This document shows positions 2,554 through 64,000 of a stretch of DNA of 64,000 nucleotides, one piece after another. The position numbers were made by a program, and so were the translations under genes. Under the pieces are notes generated by a model. That model had not been told where the DNA came from. It did not search any database and saw only the letters and a list, made by a program, of their open reading frames with translations. Where the stretch lies: IMG/VR virus record IMGVR_UViG_3300045988_146577, one strand, 5' to 3'. The stretch comes from a virus (lineage: Duplodnaviria > Heunggongvirae > Uroviricota > Caudoviricetes). Numbering within the stretch: position 1 is the stretch's first letter; each line of letters begins with the position of its first letter.

Positions 2554-4662
2554 TCACTTTAAAATGATACGAGATAGTTCAGTAACTACAGATGAACCAA
2601 GACTATCAACGCTCGTTACCAGGGCATGATTTGCGTAAAATCTCTCCGGTGCATCAGTCATGATGCCAATTGCCATCAAATCAATGTCAGTCTGCGTTTC
2701 AATTTGCTTCGCAACCGAACGCAAATGAGCGTCAAAACCTCTCCCAACAGCCCACGGCTCGCCATCGCTCAGAACAAGCATGATCTTCCTGTCCTCCATG
2801 CGACCGGAAAATAACGATGCAAGGCTGGCTATGCTTTCACCATCCACGTTATTAAGAAGTGGGAATGTGTAGCCTACGCACCCCATACGTGAGCGAACTT
2901 CGCGAGAATTTGCTTTTTCATTCCAATTTTTGATGATAGGTAGCATTAAAGATTCAAAGCGAGAGAACTCATATTTGATAGCCTTAAGTTCTCCTGCTGC
3001 CATATGACTGCCAAATGTAGTGAAGCCGGTGATAATGTTGGGAACATTTATTCGATCAAGTGCATCGGCGATGGTATATGCACTTGCAAGAGCTAGTTTT
3101 ATCGTTTCGCCACTCATTGAACCCGATAAATCAATCACTTGTTGAACACAGGCGTTAACGGCTTTAGATTCTTCTTTTTTACGAAACACGCGATCATCAT
3201 TCATTGTTAATCTGTAGATACTTGAACCATGAATGCGCCCCCGACGCTGGCCAGGTATAAACTGAACTCTGTTTCTGCTTGCTATTGCACGTTCCAGGTC
3301 TTTTGCCAGCGTCGACGAAACACCTGACGAAAGGTGCTTTTCAATATATTTGTCGAAGAGTTGGTTGCCTTCAGGAACGATGCGATAACGGCTGATTGGA
3401 TATCCACCTAAATCAATATCGGAGAATGTTTTAATAAGCCGTTTGATATGGGCTTCTGCCTGATCAATCGAGCCGATGAAGTCGTATGAGCGATTGTATG
3501 GCCTGTATTCGCTTTTCGAGCTTTCTGTTAACTCGCTTTTAATCGTTTCGGATAGCGCATCTTCTGTCATGCCTCCGACTTCATCTTCCATGCTATCCAA
3601 CTCCTCTAAAGCCTCTTCCAGACTCATTTTTGACGGAGTTGGAATGTCTGAAGAGCCGTCTTCTGTCGTTTTTCTTTTTTCGTGGTCAGCGGTTAATGAT
3701 TCTGACGCCGCGTTATCAGAAGCATCAGAATCTGATACCGCTTTATCATTTTCTGTATCATCGAATATTGTTTCTGATGATTCAGGATTATCTGAATCAT
3801 CACTGTCGTTATTATCATGTTTGTGCTTACTATGTGACTCTGATTTAATAGATTTGTGATTATCTAACGATGAGGGTGTCTCATGATCTTCGTTGTCTTC
3901 ATTGTTTTCTCCAGAGGCATCCGTCTGGTCAGCGTCTGAAGGATCGGAAGTTTTTCCCGGAGCTGACTCCTTACCTTTGCTTTCACTTTCAGTGTCTTTG
4001 AGGATCTTAGCTATGGTCGCAGCCACCTTTACACAATCCTCGGTGCAAGACATGTTACGCACGGCCACATCGATACCATGTTCTTTTAATAATGAAATTG
4101 GTTTCTCAATGACAGGCCAATATTCATCCATGAAATCTACGAACGGTGCTTGGCCATCCCAGGCTCTTACAACCGGACAGAGAAAGAAGTTTAGAAAAAG
4201 CGCGCGCTGATCTTTGCCACAATAAGCAATAGCCTCTGAAGCCTTTGGTTTAAAGACTTTTTCGATTATAAGGCGCTGAGTTGCCATCAGATTACGTCTT
4301 GTTCCGTTAAAGACCTGACCCATTTTTCGCTCGATGAACACGTCTTCTAAGGCATTCCATAGCGACCAGGAAGGAACGCGTCCTTTTTCTCTCATTTTGT
4401 TGGACACACGAATATCGGTAAACAAAATGTGAGCAACCTCATGATCGAGAAATCCGCGCACAGCATTCATCAATGCCGGTGTTGCGTTATCCGGGATTGA
4501 TGGGATGTTTACGAGAATTGGCTCTCCATCATCGTTATAGCGTACATAAGCGTCGTCCCCTCGTTCTGCAACAGGGATGTTTTTACCTGAAAGGAGAGCG
4601 ACTACTCGTTTTACACTGTCACGGAAGTCCTGAACCTCTTTGATGGAACGTTTTTTAGACAT
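2554..4662 (-). CDS. von Willebrand factor A (vWA) domain protein with long acidic Ser/Asp/Glu-rich central region (CobT-like)
   Basis: C-terminal MIDAS-like motif VIDLSGSMSG; strongly acidic low-complexity middle; directly upstream of the AAA+ gene on same strand. Confidence 0.75.
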   Translation of the reverse strand: MSKKRSIKEVQDFRDSVKRVVALLSGKNIPVAERGDDAYVRYNDDGEPILVNIPSIPDNATPALMNAVRGFLDHEVAHILFTDIRVSNKMREKGRVPSWSLWNALEDVFIERKMGQVFNGTRRNLMATQRLIIEKVFKPKASEAIAYCGKDQRALFLNFFLCPVVRAWDGQAPFVDFMDEYWPVIEKPISLLKEHGIDVAVRNMSCTEDCVKVAATIAKILKDTESESKGKESAPGKTSDPSDADQTDASGENNEDNEDHETPSSLDNHKSIKSESHSKHKHDNNDSDDSDNPESSETIFDDTENDKAVSDSDASDNAASESLTADHEKRKTTEDGSSDIPTPSKMSLEEALEELDSMEDEVGGMTEDALSETIKSELTESSKSEYRPYNRSYDFIGSIDQAEAHIKRLIKTFSDIDLGGYPISRYRIVPEGNQLFDKYIEKHLSSGVSSTLAKDLERAIASRNRVQFIPGQRRGRIHGSSIYRLTMNDDRVFRKKEESKAVNACVQQVIDLSGSMSGETIKLALASAYTIADALDRINVPNIITGFTTFGSHMAAGELKAIKYEFSRFESLMLPIIKNWNEKANSREVRSRMGCVGYTFPLLNNVDGESIASLASLFSGRMEDRKIMLVLSDGEPWAVGRGFDAHLRSVAKQIETQTDIDLMAIGIMTDAPERFYANHALVTSVDSLGSSVVTELSRIILK

Positions 4663-4760
4663 GGCTAATCCTTTGTTATGAAAACAAATTATTTACTAGT
4701 GTGTTTAATGTAGCACTGCGCGAACAGGGAACTAAGCCATTCGCGCAGGGAGAAGAGGGG

Positions 4761-5611: not shown

Positions 5612-6709
5612 AAAATTTACACGAATAAGCTCTGTTGATAGACGATCTCCCTTAAATTTGTGGTCAATTTCGTCTAAATCCGGTTGCTCTACGATTGATG
5701 CGATGTACGTCGAGAAACTTTCTAAGGCGTCTCGCATCTCGTCCATATAATCGTGCCGGTCGTAGACCCGATCTATCCCCTCAAGACTGTGGTTCATGAT
5801 TTTACGTGATACCTCCTGGCTTATGCCTAATGCTGGGAAGTAACTACGCGCAGTACGGCGCAAATCTCGGGGTGTAAATGGCTCAAGCTCCATCAGTTCT
5901 GGTCGTTCCAGAATACGACGTAATGCCTGGGCTATTGCCACTTTAGACATAGGAAGGTCTTTCCCGATTTTTTTATTCGAAGGCACGAGCCACTGGCTGT
6001 CTTTACCATATTCGAACAACTCTTCAATACAAGTGCGCATTAATGAGCTTAAAGGCAGAGAATGCTCACGGGCAGATTTGTTCCTCTTGCCTTGATTCCA
6101 AACCCCACGCTTAAGATTGAACTCACTTTTTTTAGCCCGCAGTACTTCGTCAGGTCGTCTTGCGGATACAAGACATAGCCTGGCCGCCCATTTTGTACCA
6201 GCACACACATTGAAGTAGTCCCATATATTCCAGAACACCCATACCTCTGCGTCAGTCAGCTTCCGCTCGCGGGGCGTGGGCTTTGCGCCACCGGCAACTT
6301 TGTTAAGTGACATATCGTTTAACGGTGACACGTCTATCATCCCCTGGAAGGCGCACCAGCTAAGGAACTGCTTCATCAGAGAGAAAACGCGGCGGCCCAT
6401 AACAATTTTGCCATCCAGTATTAGTGGGTTGACCAGTTGGTTCACCATGAACCTATTAATATCACTTACTTTTACATCGGCAATGTGCGGAAAAACATGT
6501 ATCAAAATACAATGAACAGCGATCTCTGGCCGACGTCTGGTTATGAGCAGAGATAAGCGAGTGAATAACATGAATGCGTCCGAGAATCTCATGTCATTGC
6601 TGACCTGGGAGATCATAACGGCCTGCATTTGAGATGCTCTTTCGAGATACTCTATCGCCTCTTTTGAGGTGTTCTCCGCAGCGCGTGCTCTGTCAAAGCT
6701 ATTTTTCAT
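5606..6709 (-). CDS. int: tyrosine recombinase / phage integrase
   Basis: 367 aa; C-terminal catalytic region with RDLRRTARS...HSLEGIDRVYDRHDY (R..H..R..Y pattern). Confidence 0.85.
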   Translation of the reverse strand: MKNSFDRARAAENTSKEAIEYLERASQMQAVMISQVSNDMRFSDAFMLFTRLSLLITRRRPEIAVHCILIHVFPHIADVKVSDINRFMVNQLVNPLILDGKIVMGRRVFSLMKQFLSWCAFQGMIDVSPLNDMSLNKVAGGAKPTPRERKLTDAEVWVFWNIWDYFNVCAGTKWAARLCLVSARRPDEVLRAKKSEFNLKRGVWNQGKRNKSAREHSLPLSSLMRTCIEELFEYGKDSQWLVPSNKKIGKDLPMSKVAIAQALRRILERPELMELEPFTPRDLRRTARSYFPALGISQEVSRKIMNHSLEGIDRVYDRHDYMDEMRDALESFSTYIASIVEQPDLDEIDHKFKGDRLSTELIRVNFS

Positions 6710-6725
6710 ATGACAATCACCGAGT

Positions 6726-13919: not shown

Positions 13920-13949
13920 GCGTGGAGGTGTTCTCCACGCTTATTTTTT
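13920..13949. terminator. hairpin with T-run between helicase and primase genes (orientation ambiguous)
   Basis: GCGTGGAGGTGTTCTCCACGC followed by TTATTTTTT on plus strand; weaker U-tract on minus strand. Confidence 0.35.
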
Positions 13950-15288
13950 AGGTAACGTCTAAGATTCGCTCAATGAAGCGCATTTGTTCGAGGTTTTGTT
14001 TAACGCGAATGCTGATCCCTCCCTGCTGGTTACGTGAACCAGCAAAGTAGAGACGAGCCTCTCCTTTCGCTTCTTCTTCTTCGGTTTTGTTGATCGTTAT
14101 TACCAGGTCAGCAATACGTACTTTTTCGATGTTGTCGGCAGCGTGCATCATTGTGGCAACTTCTGACGCGCCACCTTCACGGTTTGTCTGCGATGCCGTG
14201 ATACCAGCAACGTTGTGTTTGTCATAAAGAGCACGTAAGTCGGTATAGATACTACGTATGTTGGCGCGATCATCACGAAGGTCATAACTGGCACGCATCA
14301 AATCTGCATAGTCGACAACAACCATGTCAGGCACCATGCCATTGGCTTTCATGCTGTTAAGCATACGATCCAGATCTGCCGGTGACATACTTCCTGACGG
14401 ACGCTCAACAACCCACAAACTACCAATCCCCTTCGTGGCTCCCAACTCTGCCAACTTACGATGAACCTCATCGCGCCGTTCCACCAGCTTGGACATTTCT
14501 GTCTCCGACAATCTTGCATCAAAACGGTCGGATAAAATGGTGGTGTGAACCTCCAGCGAGAGATACAGAACATTGTAGCCAGCAAGCGTTGCGTTTATGG
14601 AAAACTCACCCATTGCGGTCGATTTACCGGATTTAGCGAACCCCATGAAGAGCACCATTTCGCGCTTTGCCCAGCCTTTTTGGTACAGCAACCTATCGAG
14701 CAGAGGGAGTCCAGTTGTAATGCTGTTTGGCACATACTCCTCTGAAGCCTCATATTCACGCGCTTTCAATCGCTCACTTGCGGAGGTGTAGTAGTCATAG
14801 ATTCCGGTCGCTTCGTTCGATCCAATCTGCTGAACCTTGGCCATGATTGCCATCGCCCCCTGAAAGTCGCCTTTCTCTTTCAGTTCAGCAGCCTTAATCA
14901 GAGCATCATCAAACGCTACGCTTTTTGCGAAGGTTGATACCTGGTCAACCATGTACGAGGTATCGGACAATTTTTCTGCAAGGATGCGCTTAAACGCAGC
15001 AACAACATCGGCGAATAGTTCCTCACGGATAGTCTTATCGCGTTTCGCACGCTTAAGCATATCCAGAATTGCAGATGAAGAGGGCGCGCTCTTGTACATA
15101 CGGTAATAGCCCGAAACCATATTAACCAATATGGCATTGGCCACATTGGCAAATTGGCTAGGCACAACCAGATCTCCCGCACGAGTAAGAAACTCGTGAT
15201 CACGACAAAAATATGCCGTCAGTCTGTTCTGGAAATCTTCATCAAACTCTTCGGACAGCCCGCGTCCTGTATGGCAAAGTTCGGTCAT
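13948..15288 (-). CDS. DnaB-family / RecA-fold replicative helicase
   Basis: 446 aa; Walker A GFAKSGKST, Walker B VVVDYADLM. Confidence 0.75.
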   Translation of the reverse strand: MTELCHTGRGLSEEFDEDFQNRLTAYFCRDHEFLTRAGDLVVPSQFANVANAILVNMVSGYYRMYKSAPSSSAILDMLKRAKRDKTIREELFADVVAAFKRILAEKLSDTSYMVDQVSTFAKSVAFDDALIKAAELKEKGDFQGAMAIMAKVQQIGSNEATGIYDYYTSASERLKAREYEASEEYVPNSITTGLPLLDRLLYQKGWAKREMVLFMGFAKSGKSTAMGEFSINATLAGYNVLYLSLEVHTTILSDRFDARLSETEMSKLVERRDEVHRKLAELGATKGIGSLWVVERPSGSMSPADLDRMLNSMKANGMVPDMVVVDYADLMRASYDLRDDRANIRSIYTDLRALYDKHNVAGITASQTNREGGASEVATMMHAADNIEKVRIADLVITINKTEEEEAKGEARLYFAGSRNQQGGISIRVKQNLEQMRFIERILDVT

Positions 15289-17482: not shown

Positions 17483-17842
17483 TCAACCTTTCTTCATCAA
17501 CTCTCGTTTGATTTCATCGGTACGCATCGTGACATCGGCAGCGGTGATCGCCTCATTCAATTTCACGATGTCCTCGATTTCCTGCGGTGACTTCTCTGCC
17601 AGATGGAAAATGGCTGCTCGAATCACGTCAGAACGAGTGAACTTCTCGAAGCGAGGGATGAACTTCATCATCTCCAGCAGTTCGAAGTATTCGTCCTCCA
17701 GTGACATTGTGCGGCTTTTAATTTTCTCTTTGCCACGAGTCGGGCGTCCCTGTGGTCTGACTGGTTGGCGCAAAGGAGTTGTGTTCTTAGCCGGTGCATC
17801 AGGCTCTTTGCGCTTTGCTAGGTCACCCATTTTCATGGACAT
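17483..17842 (-). CDS. putative partition centromere-binding protein (ParG/ParB-like small partner of ParA)
   Basis: 119 aa ORF directly downstream of and abutting ParA; basic N-terminus; assigned by position only. Confidence 0.4.
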   Translation of the reverse strand: MSMKMGDLAKRKEPDAPAKNTTPLRQPVRPQGRPTRGKEKIKSRTMSLEDEYFELLEMMKFIPRFEKFTRSDVIRAAIFHLAEKSPQEIEDIVKLNEAITAADVTMRTDEIKRELMKKG

Positions 17843-18510
17843 TATTCTTCTTCCTCCAGACTCAACAGATAATCTACAAATTCTTCAAACTCGGCTTCCG
17901 CCTTTTTGTCGCGCTCGCTACCGGTCATTTCAAAGATAGAACGACCAGACTCTTCCGCATCATCATAGACGTTGCGGTTATATAGATTGACTGGCGCAGA
18001 CTCGATTCCAAACGTCTCAACAATCTCTTTAGCCGCCAGAATGCGAGACACTTGTGATGGCAAAGCCGGGCACTGGTTCATGACCGCGCGGACCTTCACT
18101 TTATCGTTTACATTGCGAACATTGTCGATAATAGGATCGATGTCACGTAAAGATTTCAAATCACGACGCTTAGGACGCAGCGGGATAATGATAACGTCAG
18201 CCATCAGCATCGCTTGTCGCTGAATTTCGGAGTCGAAGCCACCAGCATCTACCACTACAAACTCAGCTCTACCCTGAAGCGATTTTAGGTGCTTAATGAT
18301 GTCATCCTGAACGTATGCAAAAGGAATCAGCTCAAGGTCTTCGTTCTGTCGACGGTCTTCACACCAGCTCGTTGTCGTGCGCTGAATATCTATATCGGTA
18401 ATATAAACCTTCTTCTTCTTTTTGACTTTCATGCAAACGGCAATTTGCTGGGCAACGGTGGATTTGCCAGGCCCGCCCTTTGTGCCGCCAACCACAAAGA
18501 TCTTGGTCAT
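17842..18510 (-). CDS. parA: ParA/Soj-family partition ATPase
   Basis: 222 aa; deviant Walker A GGTKGGPGKST at N-terminus. Confidence 0.8.
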   Translation of the reverse strand: MTKIFVVGGTKGGPGKSTVAQQIAVCMKVKKKKKVYITDIDIQRTTTSWCEDRRQNEDLELIPFAYVQDDIIKHLKSLQGRAEFVVVDAGGFDSEIQRQAMLMADVIIIPLRPKRRDLKSLRDIDPIIDNVRNVNDKVKVRAVMNQCPALPSQVSRILAAKEIVETFGIESAPVNLYNRNVYDDAEESGRSIFEMTGSERDKKAEAEFEEFVDYLLSLEEEE

Positions 18511-47683: not shown

Positions 47684-47723
47684 AGATCCCTCTAAAACAC
47701 ACAGAGCGCGTCCATGCGCTCTA

Positions 47724-47764
47724 AAACAACTTGTTTACTGCATCTTCTAACCAACTTGTTTTCT
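47724..47764 (-). promoter_or_regulatory. operator motif A, two half-site copies upstream of terminase small subunit
   Basis: AAACAACTTGTTT and CCAACTTGTTTTCT 40-80 nt upstream of start at 47683. Confidence 0.5.
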
Positions 47765-47879: not shown

Positions 47880-48146
47880 TTACATCACCAGTAACTTCGC
47901 TTTGGCTCGACCTAAAGTGGTTAACCCAAGAGTTCGGCGGTGATAGCGATTGTCACTGCGTTGGCGCGTATGCCCTTTCTCCACCAGCCCCTTTTTTATC
48001 AGAGCGCGAATTGAGAACTGGATACTTTGCTTGGTTGTCTTGTACGGCAAAACTTCAAGCAATTCGTCCAGATCAAGTAGATGACCTCGCTCATAACCGA
48101 GATTGAGCGTTTTGATGATGTCCTTTTGTTTATCGGTTAACGTCAT
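47880..48146 (-). CDS. small winged-HTH-like DNA-binding protein (last gene of ParB-ATPase-GNAT operon)
   Basis: 88 aa basic protein; 10 nt downstream of GNAT-fold gene. Confidence 0.5.
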   Translation of the reverse strand: MTLTDKQKDIIKTLNLGYERGHLLDLDELLEVLPYKTTKQSIQFSIRALIKKGLVEKGHTRQRSDNRYHRRTLGLTTLGRAKAKLLVM

Positions 48147-54895: not shown

Positions 54896-55417
54896 ATGGT
54901 TAAAGACATCACCTACGGCATACCGGCTGAAGTATGGCCGCGAGACTACGAACATGCTGAACGCACCTTGCTCTTCTGGCGGAGAGCTAAATTTCCTGTA
55001 AGAGTCACTCTCGAAGACGGCCAAGTGTTTTGCATGTACGTTTATGGTCTCATGTCATCTCGTAACAAAGTTGACCTTTGTCCAACTCCATTTGACAAAG
55101 AAAATCGTATAAGGCTCCCACTTGAGCGCATTAGCACAATTGAATCAGGCGTAATTGATGGCATTGATTACGATTTCAAAGGGAGACTAACAATACACCC
55201 TGACTATGTAGACAACCAGCCATCACGTCGTGACTTTTTTAAGATATGTCGTCAGGCTTACCAAAACGGCAAATCTATAAGGGTCTACATGGCAGACGGT
55301 CGCGAAATTGAGGGAACGTCAGATGGCGTTGACGCCTGTCTAGTCACACTTAAGTTGGAAGACGGTAGAAAAATACTTATTTTCTTCGATTGGGTTGAAC
55401 GAATCCTTCCGTTTTAG
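54896..55417 (+). CDS. hypothetical protein
   Basis: 173 aa ORF. Confidence 0.45.
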   Translation: MVKDITYGIPAEVWPRDYEHAERTLLFWRRAKFPVRVTLEDGQVFCMYVYGLMSSRNKVDLCPTPFDKENRIRLPLERISTIESGVIDGIDYDFKGRLTIHPDYVDNQPSRRDFFKICRQAYQNGKSIRVYMADGREIEGTSDGVDACLVTLKLEDGRKILIFFDWVERILPF

Positions 55418-55426
55418 GATATTGAT

Positions 55427-55726
55427 ATGAAAACTGTAGCAGCATTCACATTCTTAACTTTCATTTTTAGCTCTTCCGCATTTCCTCAAGAAAATAGCAT
55501 TGAACGAGTGCAACGTGTCTCTACAGAGTTGTGTTCAAAGGCGGAAGACTACGATTTGTGCATGTTAGACCTAAGCATGGCTTTAGGCGCTGCATATCAA
55601 GATGGACTGATCGTTGCGGGATGCAAGTTGGGACTTGATGAGCCTTCGAAAGACAAATGCGAAAACTCGGAGCGTTTTCAGGAATATATAATAAAAGAAA
55701 TCAGGAACTATGCAAAAAAGATGTAA
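55427..55726 (+). CDS. small secreted Cys-containing protein
   Basis: 99 aa; N-terminal signal-peptide-like MKTVAAFTFLTFIFSSSAF; four Cys. Confidence 0.5.
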   Translation: MKTVAAFTFLTFIFSSSAFPQENSIERVQRVSTELCSKAEDYDLCMLDLSMALGAAYQDGLIVAGCKLGLDEPSKDKCENSERFQEYIIKEIRNYAKKM

Positions 55727-56009
55727 ATTCCTATAAGGGTAATAACCGGCTAAGTCCGGTTATTATTTTACATGCCATTCGTTTAACACTCATTCAATTC
55801 TCCCCCGTATAAATATATATAAGGTCAAAAGCCGGAATTTATTATTTATTTAGGGAACACCTTCGACGATCTCGCTTTTATTTCTAGGGCTTTCATCCCT
55901 GCAAAAAACTTAAAAAAATACTTGCAATCTTTTTTCGCGTGTCGATAATTGGACTCATCGAAAGCGAAATTGCTAACGATAATTAAATTTTATACTAAGG
56001 ATTGAAATC

Positions 56010-56660
56010 ATGACTAACATTATCATTTCTAAAAAATCCATCATTGAAGCTGCTGCCATTGTATCCGACGAGCTGCGCGAAAAAGCAGATCTGGCAACTC
56101 AAACATATAACGAACATTATAAAAATGGTACGCACACAAAAGCAGACAAAGCAAATATGCAAGCTGCGACCACCAAACTTGCTTACTTCATCAACAACGT
56201 CGTAAACGCAGTAGAAGACGAAAAATTGTGCTCTGTTTTCTACTATGCGATCAAAGCAAGCAAACAAGCGCCAGAAGTATTTTTCCGTGATGCAATGACT
56301 AATAGTTATTCTCTGGAAAAACTGGTTTATCTGGTTAAATCCATTAAAGCTGGAAAGTGTGTTTATTCCGTCGCTGATATGTCCGGATCTCGTGTATTCG
56401 CATTAATCGATATGATTAACGACGAGATCGAGACGTTCACAAATGGCGCTGTTTTCGATTTAATGAATGAAGCGAAAAAAGCCAACGAAATAAAATTAGA
56501 CGCAGGATACACTCAAGCCAACCAGCTTATCAATCTTTGCGAACGTCTTGGACTTGTTGAGAAAGTCAAAGGAATGGGAAGCGCAAAAGCTGGTACGCAG
56601 CAATATCGCTTTATTAAAAATGATTTCTATAACTATCTGGCTGATGCTTTCAAAGCGTAA
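56010..56660 (+). CDS. hypothetical protein
   Basis: 216 aa ORF followed by terminator at 56674. Confidence 0.5.
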   Translation: MTNIIISKKSIIEAAAIVSDELREKADLATQTYNEHYKNGTHTKADKANMQAATTKLAYFINNVVNAVEDEKLCSVFYYAIKASKQAPEVFFRDAMTNSYSLEKLVYLVKSIKAGKCVYSVADMSGSRVFALIDMINDEIETFTNGAVFDLMNEAKKANEIKLDAGYTQANQLINLCERLGLVEKVKGMGSAKAGTQQYRFIKNDFYNYLADAFKA

Positions 56661-56673
56661 TTAATGGAATCTG

Positions 56674-56694
56674 GCGCCCACTATGGGCGCTTTT
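56674..56694 (+). terminator. rho-independent terminator
   Basis: GCGCCCACTATGGGCGC + TTTT. Confidence 0.7.
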
Positions 56695-56707
56695 AAGGAG
56701 CTTAATC

Positions 56708-56938
56708 ATGTTTATTCTTATCGCTGGCGTTAACGTGCGCAATGAATATTTTGTTAATCGCATCGCTGGGATCGCTGGTTACGCTGGGCGCGCAGTCGAG
56801 CTTATAGATGAAACGACGCGCAAAATTGACTTATTGAGCGACCAGGAGCGAAAAAAAGCAGACGTGAATGACGCTGATATATTTTTAATGTTAAAAGCGT
56901 TTGTAGAAATGGGATTTGAAATCAGTTTACATAAATAA
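56708..56938 (+). CDS. hypothetical small protein
   Basis: 76 aa ORF followed by identical terminator hairpin. Confidence 0.45.
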   Translation: MFILIAGVNVRNEYFVNRIAGIAGYAGRAVELIDETTRKIDLLSDQERKKADVNDADIFLMLKAFVEMGFEISLHK

Positions 56939-56944
56939 AATCGA

Positions 56945-56967
56945 GCGCCCACTATGGGCGCTTTTTT
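56945..56967 (+). terminator. rho-independent terminator (identical hairpin to 56674)
   Basis: GCGCCCACTATGGGCGC + TTTTTT. Confidence 0.7.
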
Positions 56968-56991
56968 CGTTTCCAATACTTCCACCATAAC

Positions 56992-57017
56992 GCGCCAATG
57001 ATGGCGCTTTTTTTATT
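56992..57017 (+). terminator. rho-independent terminator
   Basis: GCGCCAATGATGGCGC + TTTTTTT. Confidence 0.6.
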
Positions 57018-57424
57018 GTCTTTGACTCAAGCCAACAACATAAAAATAAGCGCCAAAATAACGCCATAGACGCGCTTTTATATCCTTACCAGTACATACC
57101 CATTACTTAGCGCATTAACGCGCTTAAATCGCGTTATATTGCGTTATGGTGTATGGTTAATCATTGGCTTTTATTCTTGCTATGTGATCCGCGTTTAATT
57201 GTCGGCGCGGATCGGCATTTTGTTTTGTTCCGTATCCGCTCGCGTATTATGTGCGCGTGATTTTTCACATAATCACACCACTTAATCACATATGTGATTA
57301 CGCTACGAAAGAAATCTGGATGTCTCAGGCGACGAAAGTCATCATAATTTTCCCCGCTCACCTGTCCGACAACCGCTGGTTGGATTCCACCAGCTTCCCG
57401 ATGTTTTTTCTATATAAAGGCGAA

Positions 57425-57545
57425 TGCAGCCGTTTCCCGAAAAAATCCTGGCCGTTTCCCGTCGGCTCATGAATACGTTCCTCGCCGTTTCTGAAAATTT
57501 CCCTGCGGCAGCTGGTGGCTATATAGAAAGGGCCGTTTCTGGCCC
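57425..57545. repeat. iteron cluster 1 (4 copies of GCCGTTTCC/TG-like motif)
   Basis: AGCCGTTTCCCG, GGCCGTTTCCCG, CGCCGTTTCTG, GGCCGTTTCTGG spaced 20-50 nt. Confidence 0.6.
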
Positions 57546-57554
57546 TCTTCTCAG

Positions 57555-58037
57555 TTACACGCCATCAAGGATGTGGATGCGGTTGCTTGCGTATACATTC
57601 AGCATAAAGTTAGCGCAAAACAGTTTCCATGTATCAACGCCAGCGGTATACGTAATGTTTTTGCATTTAATCGCATTGTTGGCGATCCGCATCCCCTGCG
57701 ATACTGCTTCATCGTCGGAAAATTTGAACGACGATTGAGTTTTAATCCAGACAGAAATCTGCGTAGCGAACTCAATCAGCTTGGACTGGCAGAATCGCCC
57801 GGAGCGCACCGGAAAGACGAACGTTCCGAATCCAGAATTTACCACATACGCTTTCTCAAATACCCGCGAGTAACGACGATTGCCAATGATGTCGCGTGCA
57901 ATAATGCATTTTTCTTGTGCTGACAGTTCTACCGTCTCATTGTCGCGCCATGCACCAAGTACTCGTTTTTCAATGTCAGAGAACGTTACAGCGATATTGC
58001 CATGTGCGGGTGCGTTTACAGTAGCGATAAAATTCAT
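57555..58037 (-). CDS. hypothetical protein
   Basis: 160 aa ORF; motif-A promoter-operator immediately upstream. Confidence 0.5.
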   Translation of the reverse strand: MNFIATVNAPAHGNIAVTFSDIEKRVLGAWRDNETVELSAQEKCIIARDIIGNRRYSRVFEKAYVVNSGFGTFVFPVRSGRFCQSKLIEFATQISVWIKTQSSFKFSDDEAVSQGMRIANNAIKCKNITYTAGVDTWKLFCANFMLNVYASNRIHILDGV

Positions 58038-58054
58038 GATTAATTCCTTATCGT

Positions 58055-58092
58055 AAATAACAAATTGTTTTCTTGTTGGTGTTAATTATCGT
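58055..58092 (-). promoter_or_regulatory. promoter-operator motif A (GATAAT -10-like box plus AACAAATTGTT palindrome)
   Basis: minus-strand CGATAATTAACACCAACAAGAAAACAATTTGTT just upstream of start at 58037. Confidence 0.55.
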
Positions 58093-58241
58093 TGTACGAA
58101 TAAGGCGTCAAAGTGGAAAGTTGCGGTAGCCGGACGGGAACAGGTGGGTTTGTCGGTTGCCTGGAGGTAAGAGGTTGGTGTTTTTAGCCTGCGGGAAACA
58201 GGATGGTCATTTAAGGCCACCAGCATTGGTGGCCTTACTCT

Positions 58242-58528
58242 TTAGTGGAGCAGACCGATGTCGATGGTATCCCCTGAATCATCCACACGGATCATCAGCA
58301 TGGCGAAGGCGTTTAGTGGATAGCTTGCGTGCCATTCAGGGAAGCGGTCATCTCGCATGAAGTCGGCAATGTCGTAAACGCAGCCCTCAAAGTGGAAGAA
58401 TCGCGTGCTTACCTGCTCGTCATATTCCACATGATCCATTTCTTGCTGTTCTGTTTCCGGCAAGTCCAGCCATGATTCAAGGAATACATTTTGTGCTTTA
58501 GGGGTAATGGTGAAATCAGTCATGAGCA
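58242..58528 (-). CDS. small acidic protein
   Basis: Start re-assigned to ATG near 58528 after SD GAGGAT (track start 58655 lies upstream of the promoter motif); about 95 aa. Confidence 0.5.
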
Positions 58529-58542
58529 TATCCTCACTGCGT

Positions 58543-58575
58543 AAACATATTGTTTTCTTGTTGGTGTAATTATCG
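58543..58575 (-). promoter_or_regulatory. promoter-operator motif A
   Basis: minus-strand TGCGATAATTACACCAACAAGAAAACAATATGTTT (extended -10-like TGnGATAAT). Confidence 0.55.
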
Positions 58576-58858
58576 CAGTGTAGATAAGGCATAAAAGAAG
58601 TTAATACAGGCTGAATACACAAGAAAGGTTCTGGAAGTTGATAGCCAGGTTTCAAACTAACCTTCGGTTATTAAAAGTCATTTAAGACCACCAATGCTGG
58701 TGGCCTTAATAATTATCGCCCGATTACGCTAAGGATCTTTTCCTCAACTGATTTGTTGTTGCGACTAAACTGCCTTGCGTATCTGATGACAGAAGAGGCG
58801 TTTTGCTTTCTGACCATCTCGACTCTTTCCTTCAGGCGTTTCTTGAAATCGCCCATAT

Positions 58859-59233
58859 TTACCACCAGGCGCAGAAGGTCAGTCTGTTATTGTGAAAGTC
58901 GTGGTTCTTAATCAGATCTTCCACAAGCTCTTTCAACTCCCCCACATCATGCCAGTAACCTTCATCGTACTCCTGACTGCCGAAGAAAAAACCTTCCCGG
59001 GTAGGCAAGTACTCTTCGCAATTACTTTCGTTTATGTGCATCAAATGAGCCTTCAGAAAACAAATGTCATTCATCGTTAATTCTAAAAGCTCACAATTTT
59101 CGACTTCACCTACGTTGCGCTCCATCCACCCAACGAGCGCATTGAACTTACGGAAGTAAGCAACCTGCTTTCTGGATGCCTCGTTATTCAGATCGTTTTT
59201 AGGCTGTGTCTCGATATAGATATCAAGTCCCAT
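58859..59233 (-). CDS. hypothetical protein
   Basis: Start re-assigned to ATG near 59233 after SD AAGGAAA; about 124 aa. Confidence 0.45.
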   Translation of the reverse strand: MGLDIYIETQPKNDLNNEASRKQVAYFRKFNALVGWMERNVGEVENCELLELTMNDICFLKAHLMHINESNCEEYLPTREGFFFGSQEYDEGYWHDVGELKELVEDLIKNHDFHNNRLTFCAWW

Positions 59234-59310
59234 GATGGTTTCCTTATTAAGTTGCTTCAGTGAAATCATTTTCACAAATCAGATAAGGCAGAAAACAAAT
59301 TGTTATCGGG

Positions 59311-59339
59311 CATAATAAAATGGCGCGGTTTGCGCGCCA
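59311..59339 (-). terminator. rho-independent terminator
   Basis: GGCGCG/CGCGCC hairpin followed by U-run on minus strand, just after the stop at 59351. Confidence 0.5.
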
Positions 59340-59350
59340 TTTAAAGAGGA

Positions 59351-59746
59351 TTAAGCGAATACGCTTTCAGGGATTAAGGTGTCGGCAGGAATGCCAGAGG
59401 TAATGCGCAGACCGTACTGGCCAATCCAGGTGGTGCTGGTGTTCAGGCTGGAGGCGAATACGGTGTTAACCATATTCATCATGGTTTCAAACACCTCTTC
59501 ATCAACCTGGCGGAAGTAGTTCTCGATTTTCAGCAGCAGAGGGTCAGTTGCATCGAGAATGGACTGGTATTGAGTCGCGTACTCGCCGCCGGAGGCATCA
59601 CCTTTACGCACGATCGTACTGGCCTGGACTTCGGCACCAGTTTCGGTGTTGTACGTAACAACGGTGATTTTTGCCACATTCTTACCTTCGGCGGTTTCAG
59701 AGGCATAGTAAACATCAACTGTCAGTTTTTCGCGTTTAACGGTCAT
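59351..59746 (-). CDS. hypothetical protein
   Basis: Start re-assigned to ATG near 59746 after SD GGAGAG; about 131 aa; TAAGTATGTACTTA palindrome upstream. Confidence 0.5.
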   Translation of the reverse strand: MTVKREKLTVDVYYASETAEGKNVAKITVVTYNTETGAEVQASTIVRKGDASGGEYATQYQSILDATDPLLLKIENYFRQVDEEVFETMMNMVNTVFASSLNTSTTWIGQYGLRITSGIPADTLIPESVFA

Positions 59747-59810
59747 TTCACTCTCCGTAGTGTTTTGGTTATTTTTATATTCTATGATCGTAAGTATGTA
59801 CTTACAATAC

Positions 59811-59837
59811 AAAAAAGCCCCGTAAGGATGGCGGGGC
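59811..59837 (-). terminator. rho-independent terminator
   Basis: GCCCCGCCATCCTTACGGGGC hairpin + U6 on minus strand. Confidence 0.65.
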
Positions 59838-59872
59838 TGTCGTACTGTCGACTAATTACCACTTGCACATTA

Positions 59873-60187
59873 TCAGGCTATTGCCATCACTGATGCTCTC
59901 TGAATTTCTTGCTGGGCCACGCGGTTAACTTCCATCAAAGCCAGTTCGAGCTGATGTTCCGGCCACATTCTTTGAAATGCCATCCAGCCTTTTCCACGCT
60001 GGCGACGAACATTCATTACATAACGAGTAAAGGTGTTTTTATCGAAAGACACCGCTGTTTCACGGAACAGACGAATAGAGGTTCCATTGGCAACGATGTC
60101 CAGCAAAGTTAATTGAGCAACCAGCGCAGGCTTCTCTTTTCTCTTCTGGTCTTTGTCCAGACCAAGAACCAATGATTTTTTCATCAC
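59873..60187 (-). CDS. small basic protein, possible DNA-binding regulator
   Basis: Start re-assigned to ATG near 60187 after SD GGAG; about 104 aa, Lys/Arg-rich. Confidence 0.45.
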   Translation of the reverse strand: MMKKSLVLGLDKDQKRKEKPALVAQLTLLDIVANGTSIRLFRETAVSFDKNTFTRYVMNVRRQRGKGWMAFQRMWPEHQLELALMEVNRVAQQEIQRASVMAIA

Positions 60188-60195
60188 AACTCCGT

Positions 60196-60211
60196 AAACA
60201 ACTTGTTTTCT
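60196..60211 (-). promoter_or_regulatory. operator motif A
   Basis: AAACAACTTGTTTTCT just upstream of start at 60187. Confidence 0.5.
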
Positions 60212-60337
60212 CAATGGCGTAAATAATACCAGTAAGAAAACGGCTACAAAGCATATTGATCAGGTGCATGAGCGATATGCAGGTTCTTCCCTGCGGCTAT
60301 AGAGAAATTAAGCCAGCAATGCTGGCTTTGGTTGGGA

Positions 60338-60667
60338 TTACTCGAATACTTCAAGAAACTCCTGAACGTCCCAATGCTGGACGAGGTGAAGATAGACCTT
60401 AGAAATCACGTCATTTTCGCTATCGCATGTGAAGTAGTACTTCTGGCTGCGGTTGTATGTGTCCACACAAAATTCGCTCATATCCATAAAGTCAGCATCT
60501 TCACCCATGTCGCAAATCATCAAAGCAGGTGCGTCATCACGAGTCATCAGCTCAAGCACCCACCGCGAATTGATCAGAGTGGAAGACCAACCTTCCAGCT
60601 CATAGAACTGGTCAAACTCTTTTTGAGTCAATTTCTTGATTTGGTTGATGTCGATATGTGCAAACAT
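60338..60667 (-). CDS. small acidic protein
   Basis: Start re-assigned to ATG near 60667 after SD AAGGA; about 109 aa; Asp/Glu-rich. Confidence 0.5.
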   Translation of the reverse strand: MFAHIDINQIKKLTQKEFDQFYELEGWSSTLINSRWVLELMTRDDAPALMICDMGEDADFMDMSEFCVDTYNRSQKYYFTCDSENDVISKVYLHLVQHWDVQEFLEVFE

Positions 60668-60679
60668 AAAGCAATCCTT

Positions 60680-60712
60680 AAACAACATGTTTTCTTGTTG
60701 GTGTTATTATCG
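60680..60712 (-). promoter_or_regulatory. promoter-operator motif A
   Basis: minus-strand TGCGATAATAACACCAACAAGAAAACATGTTGTTT directly upstream of SD and ATG. Confidence 0.55.
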
Positions 60713-60994
60713 CAATAACGCACAGGCGAAAAAGGATTTTATTCCGGTGAATGTGGTTTTGGCAGTGAGTTTTCAGGTTCAGTACCGAGTACACTTTTTA
60801 CATTATTCTGATTTAGTGGCCGAAGGTGGCTGGTGGGCAGAATAATCATCTCCCCGAAAACCTACTGAAATCGATTGTGACCCGTTGGCTGTCTGGCACA
60901 ATTACGCTGTAACTGGGCATTCAGAGGGAATCCAGCGGTAAGTAAGTTCGCCTGCACGTGAGCGCCTCTCTTCTTCCCGCACATTACAGGTGGG

Positions 60995-61185
60995 TAGCCG
61001 CAACTCTCCCTCTCGCTATACCGGTACGCCGCCGTTCCTGAACCGGCATCGAGCCTTTTCCCGAAATCCACACAGGCAACTCGACCGTTTCCCTGAAAAC
61101 CTCCAGCCGTTCCCCGAAGGCAACCCAGCCGTTTCTGTAGCGGGATGCAGCCTTTTCCCTGTATGGACCGAAGGCTGACCGTAGG
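60995..61185. repeat. iteron cluster 2 (6 copies of CCGTTTCC-like motif)
   Basis: CGCCGTTCCTG, AGCCTTTTCCCG, GACCGTTTCCCTG, AGCCGTTCCCCG, AGCCGTTTCTG, AGCCTTTTCCCTG at ~20-30 nt spacing. Confidence 0.6.
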
Positions 61186-61225
61186 GGTGTTACGGGGGGG
61201 TAAAATCAGGAGTTGAATAAATACG

Positions 61226-61248
61226 AAAAAGGAGGCGACACCCCTCCT
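61226..61248 (-). terminator. terminator-like hairpin ending the transcript of the GT-skewed region
   Basis: AGGAGG/CCTCCT stem with 7-nt loop followed by U5 on minus strand. Confidence 0.4.
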
Positions 61249-61249
61249 T

Positions 61250-62110
61250 CCCTCCCCACTTATACATACCTGTCTTGTTCGCTATACATGTTGTGTTTTC
61301 TTCGTGTTTTATCTGTCTCAACCTCTCTATAGGCGTTAATGCTCACTCCTTCCAGAACGTTCTATACGGCGACTATTTCTGTTGGTGAATTGGGTGTGTT
61401 GTTTTCTCTGTCGGTGTATGTAGTTTCATTAGTTTTGCGGTGGTTCTTCTATGGGGTGTTCTCGTCGTTTTGGTGATTGTTCTTCTCCGTGTATGGAGTA
61501 ATGACAGGTGGGCGATTGCTTTCGTTATTGTGTTTGAGTTGTTTGTCTGGAGTGTGAAAGGCTTTTGTAGTTATTCGTGTATTGGGTAATGGCGTTTCCC
61601 GTGATTGTTATGTTTCGTGTCTTTTGGGATTGAGAGAAACCTTGCGGTTACAGGCTTCGTTGGGGTTTCAGTGATTCTGATGTTTCTTCGCTGTTTGGGT
61701 AATGGCGTGTCGTGAGTATCGCGCGTATGGAAGTTTCGAATTGCCTGTGAAAGTTAGGTTGGTTGTCCGGTAGCCTGGGAAGAAGAGGTGGGTCTTTTCG
61801 GTAGCCTGCCATAAAGAGGTTGGTTGTTTTGGGAATGGCATATGTGTTATTTAGTTGTTTTGTTATGCCTGAAAATAAGTTGTTTATATGGTTATGTAAC
61901 GCAACGGGAACGATTTTGAGCGTGTGTTTTTGTTGGTAGTGTGTTGGGTCGTCTGTGGTGAAAATTGGACGCTGTGGCGCTGTCTGCTGCGTAGAATTAC
62001 GGGTATAAGCTGTGATGTGTGGAAACGTCAATTTTTTAGACCAAATCGGGTGAAAGCGTTGATGTTTCGTTGATCTGTTATTCAGTTGTTTTCTTGATTG
62101 TATAAACAAC
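61250..62110 (-). ncRNA. candidate long non-coding transcript from GT-skewed (plus strand) region; transcript would be CA-rich and G-poor
   Basis: ~860 bp with strong G+T skew on plus strand, internal short repeats, no credible ORF; promoter-like motif near 62080-62110 and terminator at 61226-61248, both minus-strand. Confidence 0.3.
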
Positions 62111-62219
62111 TATAACTTATTGATATTTAAGGATGTGATTGCGGGTATGGAAGGGGAGTAGTGGCGATCAACGGATTCTTATAGAAAAGAATCAAATTGT
62201 GACCGCCATTATCAATGTT

Positions 62220-62954
62220 TTACTTAGTTTTGTTTAGCAGAGAGAGAATTTCATCACTAATTTCACTCGCCTGTTTGATAGCCAATGCAGTTACCTCTTC
62301 TATGGTTGGTGACTGTTGATGCTCATGTTTGGTTTCAGTTATGACAATGTGTTCTTCACCTGAATTTGCGCATAGTGCCGCATTGACTATAAGGTTTGAG
62401 TAAGAATTTAGCAGAGCACTGTTGATAAACGCTTTCACGGTATTACTGTCTGCACCAAATACATCTTTTCTGACCGCTTCAGCCTCACAGCGAACCCCTG
62501 CAGCAACATCGTGAAGAACATGTATGGCCTTGGAGCTTGTTTGTTCACAGTACTCAATCATTATTGTCGAATTGTTCTGTTCAACAAATGATCTGATGCC
62601 TGACGATTCACCCATAGCATCGAAGGCAGCGTGACTCGCACTAGTAGAGATATCTTCATAGAGTTCTTCATCGCTATCTTTTTCTTCAGGTGTCGAGGTG
62701 TCTTCATCGTCGTAATAGATATTGCCTTTAATCAGTGTTTTGGATACTTGATATAAACAATAAGAGACAAGATTTAAGCATTGGATTTTAGCTGTATTGT
62801 CCTTTGTCGCCTCGCTCTTCAGTTCTTTCGCTTCTTCAGTAAGGCTGTTGATAAGACTTTGTATTTTTTCCAACGCGTTAGGTGCACACTCCGCGTTGTC
62901 CATAAAGAATTTATAACCAGTTCCAGGGATTTCTAAACTTTTCAACTTTTTCAT
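62220..62954 (-). CDS. hypothetical protein
   Basis: 244 aa ORF, acidic. Confidence 0.5.
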   Translation of the reverse strand: MKKLKSLEIPGTGYKFFMDNAECAPNALEKIQSLINSLTEEAKELKSEATKDNTAKIQCLNLVSYCLYQVSKTLIKGNIYYDDEDTSTPEEKDSDEELYEDISTSASHAAFDAMGESSGIRSFVEQNNSTIMIEYCEQTSSKAIHVLHDVAAGVRCEAEAVRKDVFGADSNTVKAFINSALLNSYSNLIVNAALCANSGEEHIVITETKHEHQQSPTIEEVTALAIKQASEISDEILSLLNKTK

Positions 62955-62999
62955 TTCTTTGATAATCCTAAAAACAAACTACCAATGCTTTAATATCTG

Positions 63000-63296
63000 T
63001 TACCAGTTCCAGCACTCAAGCCCTTCAACGACCGGTGCACCACAATCAAAATGTACAGAGTCAAAGCCTACATCAAGTACTTTCTGAATGTTAGCAATCG
63101 CGCCTTCGGATATACCATATCGACGCAAGTCGTCTTTCCAGACATCATCCTGTAACCCGGCGTGGACAATACAACCGCCATCAATTTGTGAAACCCAATC
63201 CAGCTCATTGCTTGCGATCATGAATCGGCGAGCATCTTCCTCTGATGTATGAGATGAGCTGATCAATGCCACCTGGTAGGCTTGGGTAATGTTCAA
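63000..63296 (-). CDS. hypothetical protein
   Basis: Start re-assigned to ATG near 63296 after SD GGAGTGG; about 98 aa; two motif-A copies upstream. Confidence 0.5.
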   Translation of the reverse strand: MNITQAYQVALISSSHTSEEDARRFMIASNELDWVSQIDGGCIVHAGLQDDVWKDDLRRYGISEGAIANIQKVLDVGFDSVHFDCGAPVVEGLECWNW

Positions 63297-63310
63297 CATT
63301 TCAACCACTC

Positions 63311-63376
63311 CAAAACAAGTTGTTTTCTTATGTGGTTTATTATCTCCATCAACAAAAGGCAGAAAACAAATTGTTT
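63311..63376 (-). promoter_or_regulatory. two copies of operator motif A
   Basis: AAAACAAGTTGTTTTCTT and AGAAAACAAATTGTTTT. Confidence 0.5.
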
Positions 63377-63460
63377 TAGGTACTGTGTAAATCAGAAGGG
63401 ATTGTGTCTATATGAAAATGCCCGGCGTGTTGCCGGGCATTGCGAAGAGAGGTTGTTTAA

Positions 63461-64000
63461 TTACTTAACCTGGTGGCCAGGTTTAGCACCAGCATCCGGG
63501 CTTAACAGGAAGATATCTTTCCCACCGGGGCCAGCAGCCATCACCATACCTTCGGAGATACCGAAGCGCATTTTACGCGGAGCCAGGTTAGCCACCATAA
63601 TGGTGTGACGACCAATCAGTGCCTGTGGGTCTGGATAAGCAGAACGGATGCCTGAGAAGACATTGCGTTTTTCACCACCTAGATCCAGCGTCAGACGCAG
63701 CAGTTTGTCAGAGCCTTCAACAAACTCCGCGTTTTCAATCAGCGCCACGCGCAGGTCAACTTTGGCGAAGTCATCAAAGGTGATGGTTTCCTGAATCGGA
63801 TCGTCTGCCAGCGGGCCAGTAACTGGCGCGGCAGTGGCTTTCACTTCTTCTTTAGAGGCTTCCACCAGTGCTTCAACCTGCTTCATGTCGATGCGGTTAT
63901 ACAGTGCTTTGAACGGATTAACTTTGTGCGCCAGCAGCGGTTGCTGGATGCCATCCCAGGTCAGTTCCGTATTGAGGAATGCTTCTGCACGCTCGGTCAG
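63461..64000 (-). CDS. metG: methionyl-tRNA synthetase, C-terminal part (partial; 5' end beyond window)
   Basis: Translation ...[30 protein letters not shown]...[19 protein letters not shown]...PGHQVK matches enterobacterial MetG C-terminal tRNA-binding domain from memory; GCCCGGCAACACGCCGGGC hairpin just downstream. Confidence 0.85.

Follow-up and report, generated by a model that had tools for sequence, protein, structure and literature searches.

We analyzed a 64,000-nucleotide (nt) stretch of tailed-phage DNA (IMG/VR record IMGVR_UViG_3300045988_146577; "the window" hereafter means this whole stretch), focusing on an array of small genes at 57555-60667 on the minus strand. In a nucleotide search, the section 57000-61500 matched 242 E. 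coli records with 95-99% identity, all of which were plasmids of ~105-125 kb and none a chromosome. Phages matched as well: Cyrano, which is the pLF82 phage-plasmid, at 98.5%, further ones of E. coli, and Klebsiella phages at ~80%. From these matches, we conclude that the window belongs to an E. coli phage-plasmid of the SSU5/pHCM2 type. The LF82 study describes Cyrano as an SSU5-like siphovirus that is episomal at ~3 copies and is induced 39-fold by ciprofloxacin (doi 10.1101/2022.10.28.514194). Relatives annotate the genes of the array as coding sequences, all of them "hypothetical" except for an "ABC transporter" label on one (g5 below), which is spurious.

An earlier note on this DNA had described five short genes here, each preceded by a motif (motif A) and separated from the next by a terminator. 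Seven open reading frames (ORFs) are present, organized in six transcription units, and by direct reading all seven have a Shine-Dalgarno-like sequence ahead of them. From the upstream end, these are g1 (60338-60667; 109 amino acids (aa), acidic, isoelectric point (pI) 4.29, net charge -14, phrog_7645), g2 (59873-60184; 103 aa, basic, pI 10.5, phrog_5125), g3 (59351-59746; 131 aa, acidic, pI 4.48, phrog_2473), g4 (58859-59233; 124 aa, acidic, pI 4.69, net charge -12, phrog_7971), g4b (58713-58856; 47 aa, basic), which starts 2 nt past the g4 stop, g5 (from 58523 or 58529 to 58242; 93 or 95 aa, pI 4.13, net charge -15, phrog_1845) and g6 (57555-58037; 160 aa, basic, pI 9.2, phrog_1641). The start of g5 had been placed at 58528, which is one base out of frame. 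Six of the seven proteins have full-length PHROG family matches, and every one of these PHROGs is of "unknown function".

The two proteins that had been singled out as markedly acidic, g5 (net -15 in 93 aa) and g1 (net -14 in 109 aa), are indeed the most negative per residue among the 63 window ORFs that were tabulated. In this ranking by acidity g4 is fifth, and the basic proteins of the array are g2, g4b and g6. When a pI of about 4 or lower and at least 20% D+E were taken as the charge profile of a DNA mimic, both g5 (21.5% D+E) and g1 (20.2%) showed it. Strong negative charge is necessary for a DNA mimic, but it is not specific. PDB searches with single sequences of g1 to g6 and with profiles of the g4 and g5 families returned nothing credible; g2 gave no match in its sequence search, and a multicystatin match of g1 (E value 1e-4, no passing stretch) was rejected as noise.

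A strong hairpin rich in GC (-17 to -24 kcal/mol) lies downstream of each unit, but a canonical U tract is found only after g2 (59816-59838, minus strand; AGCCCCG...CGGGGCT then UUUUUUG) and g3 (59320-59342, minus; ATGGCGCG-CAAA-CCGCGCCAT then UUUAUUAU). The tract is partial after g1 (60310-60328, minus; AAGCCAGCATTGCTGGCTT, then AAUUUCUCU) and g6 (57529-57546, minus; AGGGCC-agaaac-GGCCCT then UUCUAUAU). It is missing from the hairpins after g5 (58211-58237, minus) and g4b (58682-58709, minus), which are near-identical copies of each other; the g5 hairpin is one of the two repeats where the g5 cassette was gained or lost. Three of the hairpins (58211-58237, 58683-58709 and 60310-60328) share the core CCAGCAnTGSTGG, and two of these are 96% complementary copies. 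They serve as breakpoints of deletion and insertion and may be more than terminators. With these corrections, the anatomy drawn in the earlier note (small genes under separate control, of which two code for highly acidic proteins) was largely right.

A shared palindromic operator

Motif A is a GATAAT -10 element beside a palindrome, AAAACAAnTTGTTTT. Its core, GAAAACANNTTGTT, with at most one mismatch, has 20 matches in the window vs 0.72 +/- 0.91 in shuffled sequences. The aligned sites read GATAAT, 11-12 nt (often ACACCAACAA), GAAAACAAnTTGTTTA, 12-21 nt and the start codon. As had been noted, the motif precedes the genes individually, and this was confirmed for five units (g1, g2, g4, g5 and g6); it does not hold for g3, which has its own promoter and no operator. 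At g1, g2, g5 and g6, the 14-nt operator core is located just downstream of the -10 element and ends 12-21 nt ahead of the start codon. The corresponding minus-strand promoter-operators are at 60679-60716 for g1 (GATAAT 60706-60711, core 60681-60694), 60195-60228 for g2 (TATTAT 60223-60228, core 60197-60210), 58541-58574 for g5 (GATAAT 58569-58574, core 58544-58557) and 58057-58090 for g6 (candidate -35 element TTGACG, GATAAT 58085-58090, core 58059-58072). At g4, the operator (59291-59307, minus) lies upstream of the -10 element and covers the -35 position of what may be an extended -10 promoter, TGTGAAAAT. The g3 promoter (59779-59807, minus) is sigma-70-like (TTGTAA-17-TAGAAT), and no operator was found upstream of g3 in the window, in SSU5, in Klebsiella or in a distant metagenomic contig, L013. 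A generic sigma-70 scan was not enriched (10 found vs 17.2 expected) and did not pick up the GATAAT promoters; therefore, the promoter calls are based on the conservation of GATAAT and on its constant placement.

The operator was also enriched in relatives: 8 sites vs 0.10 expected in SSU5, 13 vs 0.10 in an IMG/VR relative (L085), and likewise an excess in Klebsiella pJN2-26. In L013, whose g3 and g5 homologues are 33-42% identical, it is again present upstream of small genes. Because it is conserved from SSU5 to L013, the operator is presumably the binding site of a conserved, probably dimeric protein of this phage-plasmid group, and its position relative to the -10 element argues for repression. 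In the literature that we searched, neither a repressor nor an operator of SSU5 is described. A candidate for the operator-binding protein is an 88-aa basic winged-helix-like protein (47880-48146); two ParB-like proteins, the basic g2 and the product of a DUF5983 gene with paired operators are further candidates. We dropped g3 as repressor because of its acidity and because its identity falls to 33-36% although the operator does not change. The idea that the conserved 5' region is an RNA target of an FljA-like protein encoded nearby was also dropped in favor of the simpler DNA operator: the motif is a palindrome, is found in either orientation and also as pairs around a -10 element, and has its g4 copy upstream of the -10 element.

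Outside the array, the operator precedes a DnaB-like helicase gene (13948-15288) that is followed by a primase gene, a ParA/MipZ-like gene (17842-18510) and, with a site at 4680, a gene for a 702-aa CobT/VWA-domain protein (2554-4662, minus), whose place in the regulon is unexpected. At 47722-47763, between the gene of the 88-aa protein and a 210-aa gene directly upstream of TerL, the large terminase subunit, there are two operators with a spacing of 28 bp, followed by a GC hairpin. Since the operator thus stands ahead of the packaging (terminase) operon, membership in the regulon does not mark an "early" class. The DUF5983 gene (63000-63308, minus; promoter region to 63378) codes for an acidic protein of 102 aa, the third most acidic of the 63 tabulated ORFs. 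It has two operators 51 bp apart around its GATAAT, and operators paired at about this distance bracket the -10 element of Klebsiella g5 as well, which suggests an ancestral two-operator promoter. Downstream of the DUF5983 gene lies a 244-aa acidic coiled-coil gene (62220-62954), which is absent from the related phage PhiR41_1.

Cassette turnover and protein families

PhiR41_1, a propagating phage whose listed host is E. coli K-12 MG1655, lacks exactly 58238-58677, that is, the g5 cassette, and its alignment with the window breaks inside the two repeated hairpins. Because this phage does without it, the g5 cassette is dispensable. PhiR41_1 also lacks 62222-62999 and carries an extra 219-nt cassette exactly at the g1 operator. 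In 38 related loci, the array begins upstream with a methyltransferase-like gene and a small acidic gene (p78), both optional. Next come the DUF5983 gene, the optional coiled-coil gene, g1 or p77 (an acidic gene of 72-77 aa that alternates with g1 in its slot), g2 and g3; then g4, alone or together with g4b, and g5, again both optional; g6 is last. The g3 alleles in these loci fall at roughly 90-100%, 50-61% and 33-36% identity and occur in mosaic combinations with their neighbors. Based on this variable content and the mosaic alleles, g2, g3 and g6 form a backbone, and g1/p77, g4/g4b and g5 are exchangeable. The array is thus a hot spot for gain and loss of cassettes, with the shared promoter-operator and hairpin sequences as recombination anchors.

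The individual genes differ in their distribution. Homologues of g1 form only 10 clusters, of which the named ones are all from E. coli, and g1 seems confined to the E. coli lineage. g2 is 58-65% identical in SSU5, Klebsiella and other relatives; an 83-aa gene at the same position in L013 was considered as its counterpart, but the match is not significant (E value 0.18). g4b accompanies g4 in E. coli relatives, and none was detected beside g4 in Klebsiella-type arrays. g6 was found only in SSU5-like elements.

The promoter-operator can also be used to find cargo. When a 16-mer of it was searched against IMG/VR, the genes that it preceded in relatives were g2, g4, g5, g6, the small acidic p77 and p78, and a gene for a 562-aa protein with a DUF4942 domain. 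Methyltransferase motifs (EPEAGRGD and NPPY) are visible in the latter, whose Pfam match covered the DUF4942 part only. At least eight operator-preceded cassettes, including one for a DUF4942 protein with methyltransferase motifs, are located on one strand at 2400-11400 of L085.

The g4 family is broad and uncharacterized: it has 79 clusters, with identities down to 29%, in phages, integrative and conjugative elements (ICEs) and plasmids. Its conserved positions are an N-terminal MGLD, YFRKxN, PT..GFFFG and two C-terminal aromatic residues (WW in g4). A homologue with 37% identity occurs in a chromosomal ICE of E. coli, adjoining conjugation genes and two genes from ardA, in a same-strand array with the order hypothetical, g4-like, hypothetical, ArdA, hypothetical, hypothetical, LPD29, DUF1281. 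Others are found in small-gene arrays on plasmids of Lactococcus and Macrococcoides, with radC close to one of them, and in a phage contig of 165 kb, within its DNA-metabolism region. The AlphaFold2 (AF2) model of g4 has a predicted local distance difference test score (pLDDT) of 93.8, and its fold matches were the DapD N-terminal domain, YfbM and the DNA mimic DMP12. Foldseek against PDB gave nothing at an E value of 1e-3 or lower (DMP12, 0.39), so that the weak likeness of the g4 model to DMP12 is a lead and not a result. Against viral models, Foldseek returned only uncharacterized proteins, several of them from jumbo phages.

Close relatives of g5 are limited to SSU5-like plasmids of Enterobacteriaceae and Yersinia pestis. 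An exhaustive profile search extended the family to 89 representative clusters of proteins of ~90-100 aa; all ten clusters that were looked up are metagenomic only, and the wider family has no Pfam or PDB relative. Its contexts are phage-like arrays of small genes, and no loci were found in IMG/VR for single remote members. Conservation in this family is aromatic and hydrophobic (F42, F73, FFRY, AFSG), with no conserved array of acidic residues.

Possible roles of the array

We read the region as an operator-controlled array of accessory cassettes, with anti-defence as the leading candidate role for the variable ones, a reading that we hold tentatively and regard as quite possible though short of probable. 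It consists of six self-contained cassettes, each with a promoter, one or two ORFs and a hairpin, and five of them have the palindromic operator beside the core promoter. In the resident state, one dimeric DNA-binding protein of the element would occupy the operators and keep the cassettes down. Upon entry into a cell without that protein, or upon induction, all cassettes would fire together, and along with them the helicase-primase, ParA-like and terminase operons that have the same operator. The products are small, non-enzyme-like and mostly acidic, and would most likely act by binding host proteins; the leading candidate role of the variable cassettes g1, g4/g4b and perhaps g5 would be to counter host defences. 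Recombination at the shared promoter-operator and hairpin sequences would account for gain and loss of cassettes.

An anti-defence role is plausible but unproven. It is plausible for the variable acidic cassettes because of the ardA neighborhood of the g4 family, the co-regulation of a methyltransferase-like gene in relatives, the turnover of the cassettes, the extreme acidity of the products and the reported scarcity of recognizable anti-defence genes in SSU5-group elements (doi 10.1101/2025.09.12.675607). Several observations weigh against it. Pfam gave no match at an E value of 0.1 or lower for any of the seven proteins, including to ArdA (PF07275), Ocr (PF08684) and Antirestrict (PF03230), and no family match was found in NCBIfam (six proteins scanned) or PADLOC. 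The AF2 model of g5, built on a 13-sequence alignment, has a pLDDT of 48 and is unusable. The sharp motifs of the g4 family, with the invariant N-terminal MGLD, look more like a binding pocket or an active site than a charge mimic. The operator is also found ahead of the helicase-primase, ParA-like and terminase operons, and the iteron-like repeats that flank the array fit a maintenance function equally well. In addition, g2, g3, g5 and g6 make up a conserved backbone whose degree of conservation (64-82% vs SSU5 and Klebsiella) is close to that of the neighboring genes, and g3 and g5 are still adjacent in L013 (4177-5036) at 33-42% protein identity. This conservation suggests a life-cycle role rather than arms-race cargo for these four genes, and the persistence of the pair hints that g3 and g5 may work together. 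Finally, the operator-linked cargo of L085 includes the lysozyme inhibitor Ivy as well as a protein similar to TerB. Neither of these has an anti-defence function, and the promoter-operator chassis is not dedicated to anti-defence.

A stronger version would be that SSU5-type elements keep a plug-and-play counter-defence array, in which unrelated inhibitors share a repressor-controlled promoter-operator and hairpin chassis, are exchanged by integrase-free homologous recombination and are expressed in one burst in a repressor-free cell; g4, g5, g1, p77 and p78 would then be new anti-defence families. We consider this version doubtful. The g4 and g5 families reach virulent-type and jumbo phages, and g4 also ICEs and Gram-positive plasmids.

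A more specific possibility is that g5 and g1 (perhaps also g4) counter restriction as DNA mimics in the manner of Ocr and ArdA; they would be made on entry and would bind type I restriction-modification enzymes or other DNA-binding defence proteins. They resemble the known mimics Ocr, ArdA and DMP12 in that g5 and g1 are small and the most negatively charged of the tabulated ORFs and that g4 has a weak fold likeness to DMP12, and a g4 homologue is located two genes from ardA. However, no ArdA, Ocr or ArdB profile matched, the g5 model has too low a pLDDT to be used, and the g4-DMP12 likeness is below Foldseek significance. DMP12 itself is reported to bind HU and not a restriction enzyme. What is conserved in the g5 family is aromatic and hydrophobic rather than an acidic array, and PhiR41_1 is listed with MG1655, which carries EcoKI, as its host and lacks g5. 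On balance, we think it unlikely that these proteins are DNA mimics of this kind. A role in the plasmid state, such as replication control, incompatibility, partition or silencing, would tie the proteins to the flanking repeats, with the basic g2, g4b and g6 binding DNA and the acidic ones modulating. Four GGAAACGGC-type repeats are located immediately downstream of g6 (57429-57540, minus), and five or six more, ~22 bp apart, upstream of the g1 unit (61030-61160, minus). Three ~30-bp repeats (ACCnACC...GGCTACCG-like) lie within the array, between the g5 hairpin and the g6 promoter (58121-58213), with related copies at 61764-61830. Both kinds recur in L013 (similar repeats at 1590-1621, 5865-5941, 2440-2456 and 6663-6713) and could be origin, incompatibility or centromere sites. 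The presence of g2, g3 and g6 in nearly all relatives, the ParA-like and helicase genes in the regulon and two ParB-like genes near the array are consistent with such a role. On the other hand, no Rep, ParB, helix-turn-helix or other DNA-binding domain was detected in the seven proteins (Pfam; NCBIfam for six), the g5, g4/g4b and g1 cassettes are dispensable or lineage-specific, and g4 relatives occur in virulent-type phage contigs and ICEs without such repeats. A maintenance or regulatory role of this kind is rather improbable in our view.

The cassettes may also be cargo of lysogenic conversion or exclusion, i.e., moron-like genes that aid the host or block rival phages and plasmids, or small toxin-antitoxin-like pairs; their role would then be defence rather than anti-defence. 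As in morons, the cassettes have a promoter and a terminator of their own around an apparently non-essential ORF, and cassettes are present or absent among close relatives. Juhala and colleagues reportedly treated, in 2000, the promoter-gene-terminator arrangement as the classical moron layout. The Ivy and TerB-like genes under the same operator in L085 and the operator-free, perhaps constitutive, g3 promoter agree with this, as does the proximity of E. coli DUF5983 proteins to CbtA toxins, downstream of which they lie (PMC10790755). The available text of the LF82 study reports ten Cyrano genes transcribed in lysogeny, giving no names for them; the morons it does name are the toxins KacT, RelE and HicA and the antitoxin HicB, and the array genes are not among these. 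By definition, a moron does not depend on the repressor of the phage, whereas five of the six units here (all but g3) carry an operator shared with the terminase and helicase operons, which argues for silencing in the resident state. Moreover, PADLOC gave no match, and no signal peptides or membrane segments were evident in the array proteins by inspection. We regard moron-like cargo as an unlikely explanation.

Among known systems, the array can be compared with the leading-region anti-defence islands of conjugative plasmids and ICEs, with their ardA, orphan methyltransferases, ssb and psiB (Samuel and Burstein 2024, PMC11541004). Both are same-strand arrays of small, mostly uncharacterized genes, those of the islands being expressed on entry into a new cell; the g4 homologue near ardA lies in such an array, and relatives place the DUF4942 protein with methyltransferase motifs under the promoter-operator of the array. 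Unlike the islands, the array has no oriT, relaxase genes or Frpo single-strand promoter around it, and ordinary -10 elements are present instead. Control relies on a palindromic operator that accompanies ordinary promoters, the element enters as double-stranded DNA by phage injection, and no recognized anti-defence gene is found in the array of the window (Pfam).

As in dispersed-operator regulons of the P1 C1 or kor type, the operator recurs far above chance and is conserved in relatives. P1 is likewise a phage-plasmid with one operator type at dispersed promoters of replication, accessory and morphogenesis-related genes. P1 operators, however, are asymmetric 17-mers, whereas the operator here is a palindrome of 15-17 bp, and no C1 homologue was identified here. 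P1 late genes are controlled indirectly via Lpa; here the operator stands directly ahead of the terminase operon. In the kil-kor system of the IncP plasmid RK2, small kle and klc genes, including that of the ArdB homologue KlcA, are under palindromic operators of KorA, KorB and KorC. There, too, palindromic operators overlap or follow the -10 elements of obscure small-gene clusters and occur at replication and partition genes, and ParB-family proteins are encoded nearby. The differences are that no sequence relation to Kor, Kle or Klc was detected (Pfam), that the element here is a phage and that its cassettes are monocistronic, each with its own hairpin.

Neighboring sequences and meaning for the group

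Upstream of the array, ~1.35 kb (60850-62200) have no convincing ORF; some relatives annotate short hypothetical coding sequences there. This section has several repeat families and an operator-like site at 61871, and its strands are strongly asymmetric, the minus strand being A/C-rich (AT skew -0.158 and GC skew +0.094 in the bin 60001-62000, within which most of the section falls). An Rfam scan of 55500-63600 gave no match. On the other side, 54896-55417 (plus strand) codes for a homologue of FljA (PF03614, E value 3.5e-80), which represses phase-1 flagellin; the homology is full-length. Because this homologue is kept in SSU5 and Klebsiella relatives, it is possible that the phage-plasmid silences the flagellin of its host. 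The window ends inside a plasmid-borne metG gene for methionyl-tRNA synthetase (63461-63886, minus). Beyond metG, relatives have an apbC/minD-like gene, an S24 peptidase gene and a gene similar to the theta subunit of DNA polymerase III, and one relative has the M subunit of a type I restriction-modification system near the metG region.

Phage-plasmids of the SSU5/pHCM2 type, which spread across hosts, are a common find in E. coli, Shigella, Salmonella Typhi and Klebsiella. If some of the cassettes were indeed counter-defence genes, this would explain how these elements spread although current tools detect almost no known anti-defence genes in them. It would also provide new families of inhibitors, with g4 relatives in ICEs, Gram-positive plasmids and jumbo phages and a g5 family of ~89 representative clusters. 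Whatever the function of the cassettes, this group of phage-plasmids has a regulon, not described before, which is defined by the palindromic operator that its members share. The operator is also a simple handle for listing their accessory cargo: the promoter-guided search recovered the DUF4942 protein with methyltransferase motifs, and the operator-linked cassettes of L085 carry Ivy and a TerB-like protein.

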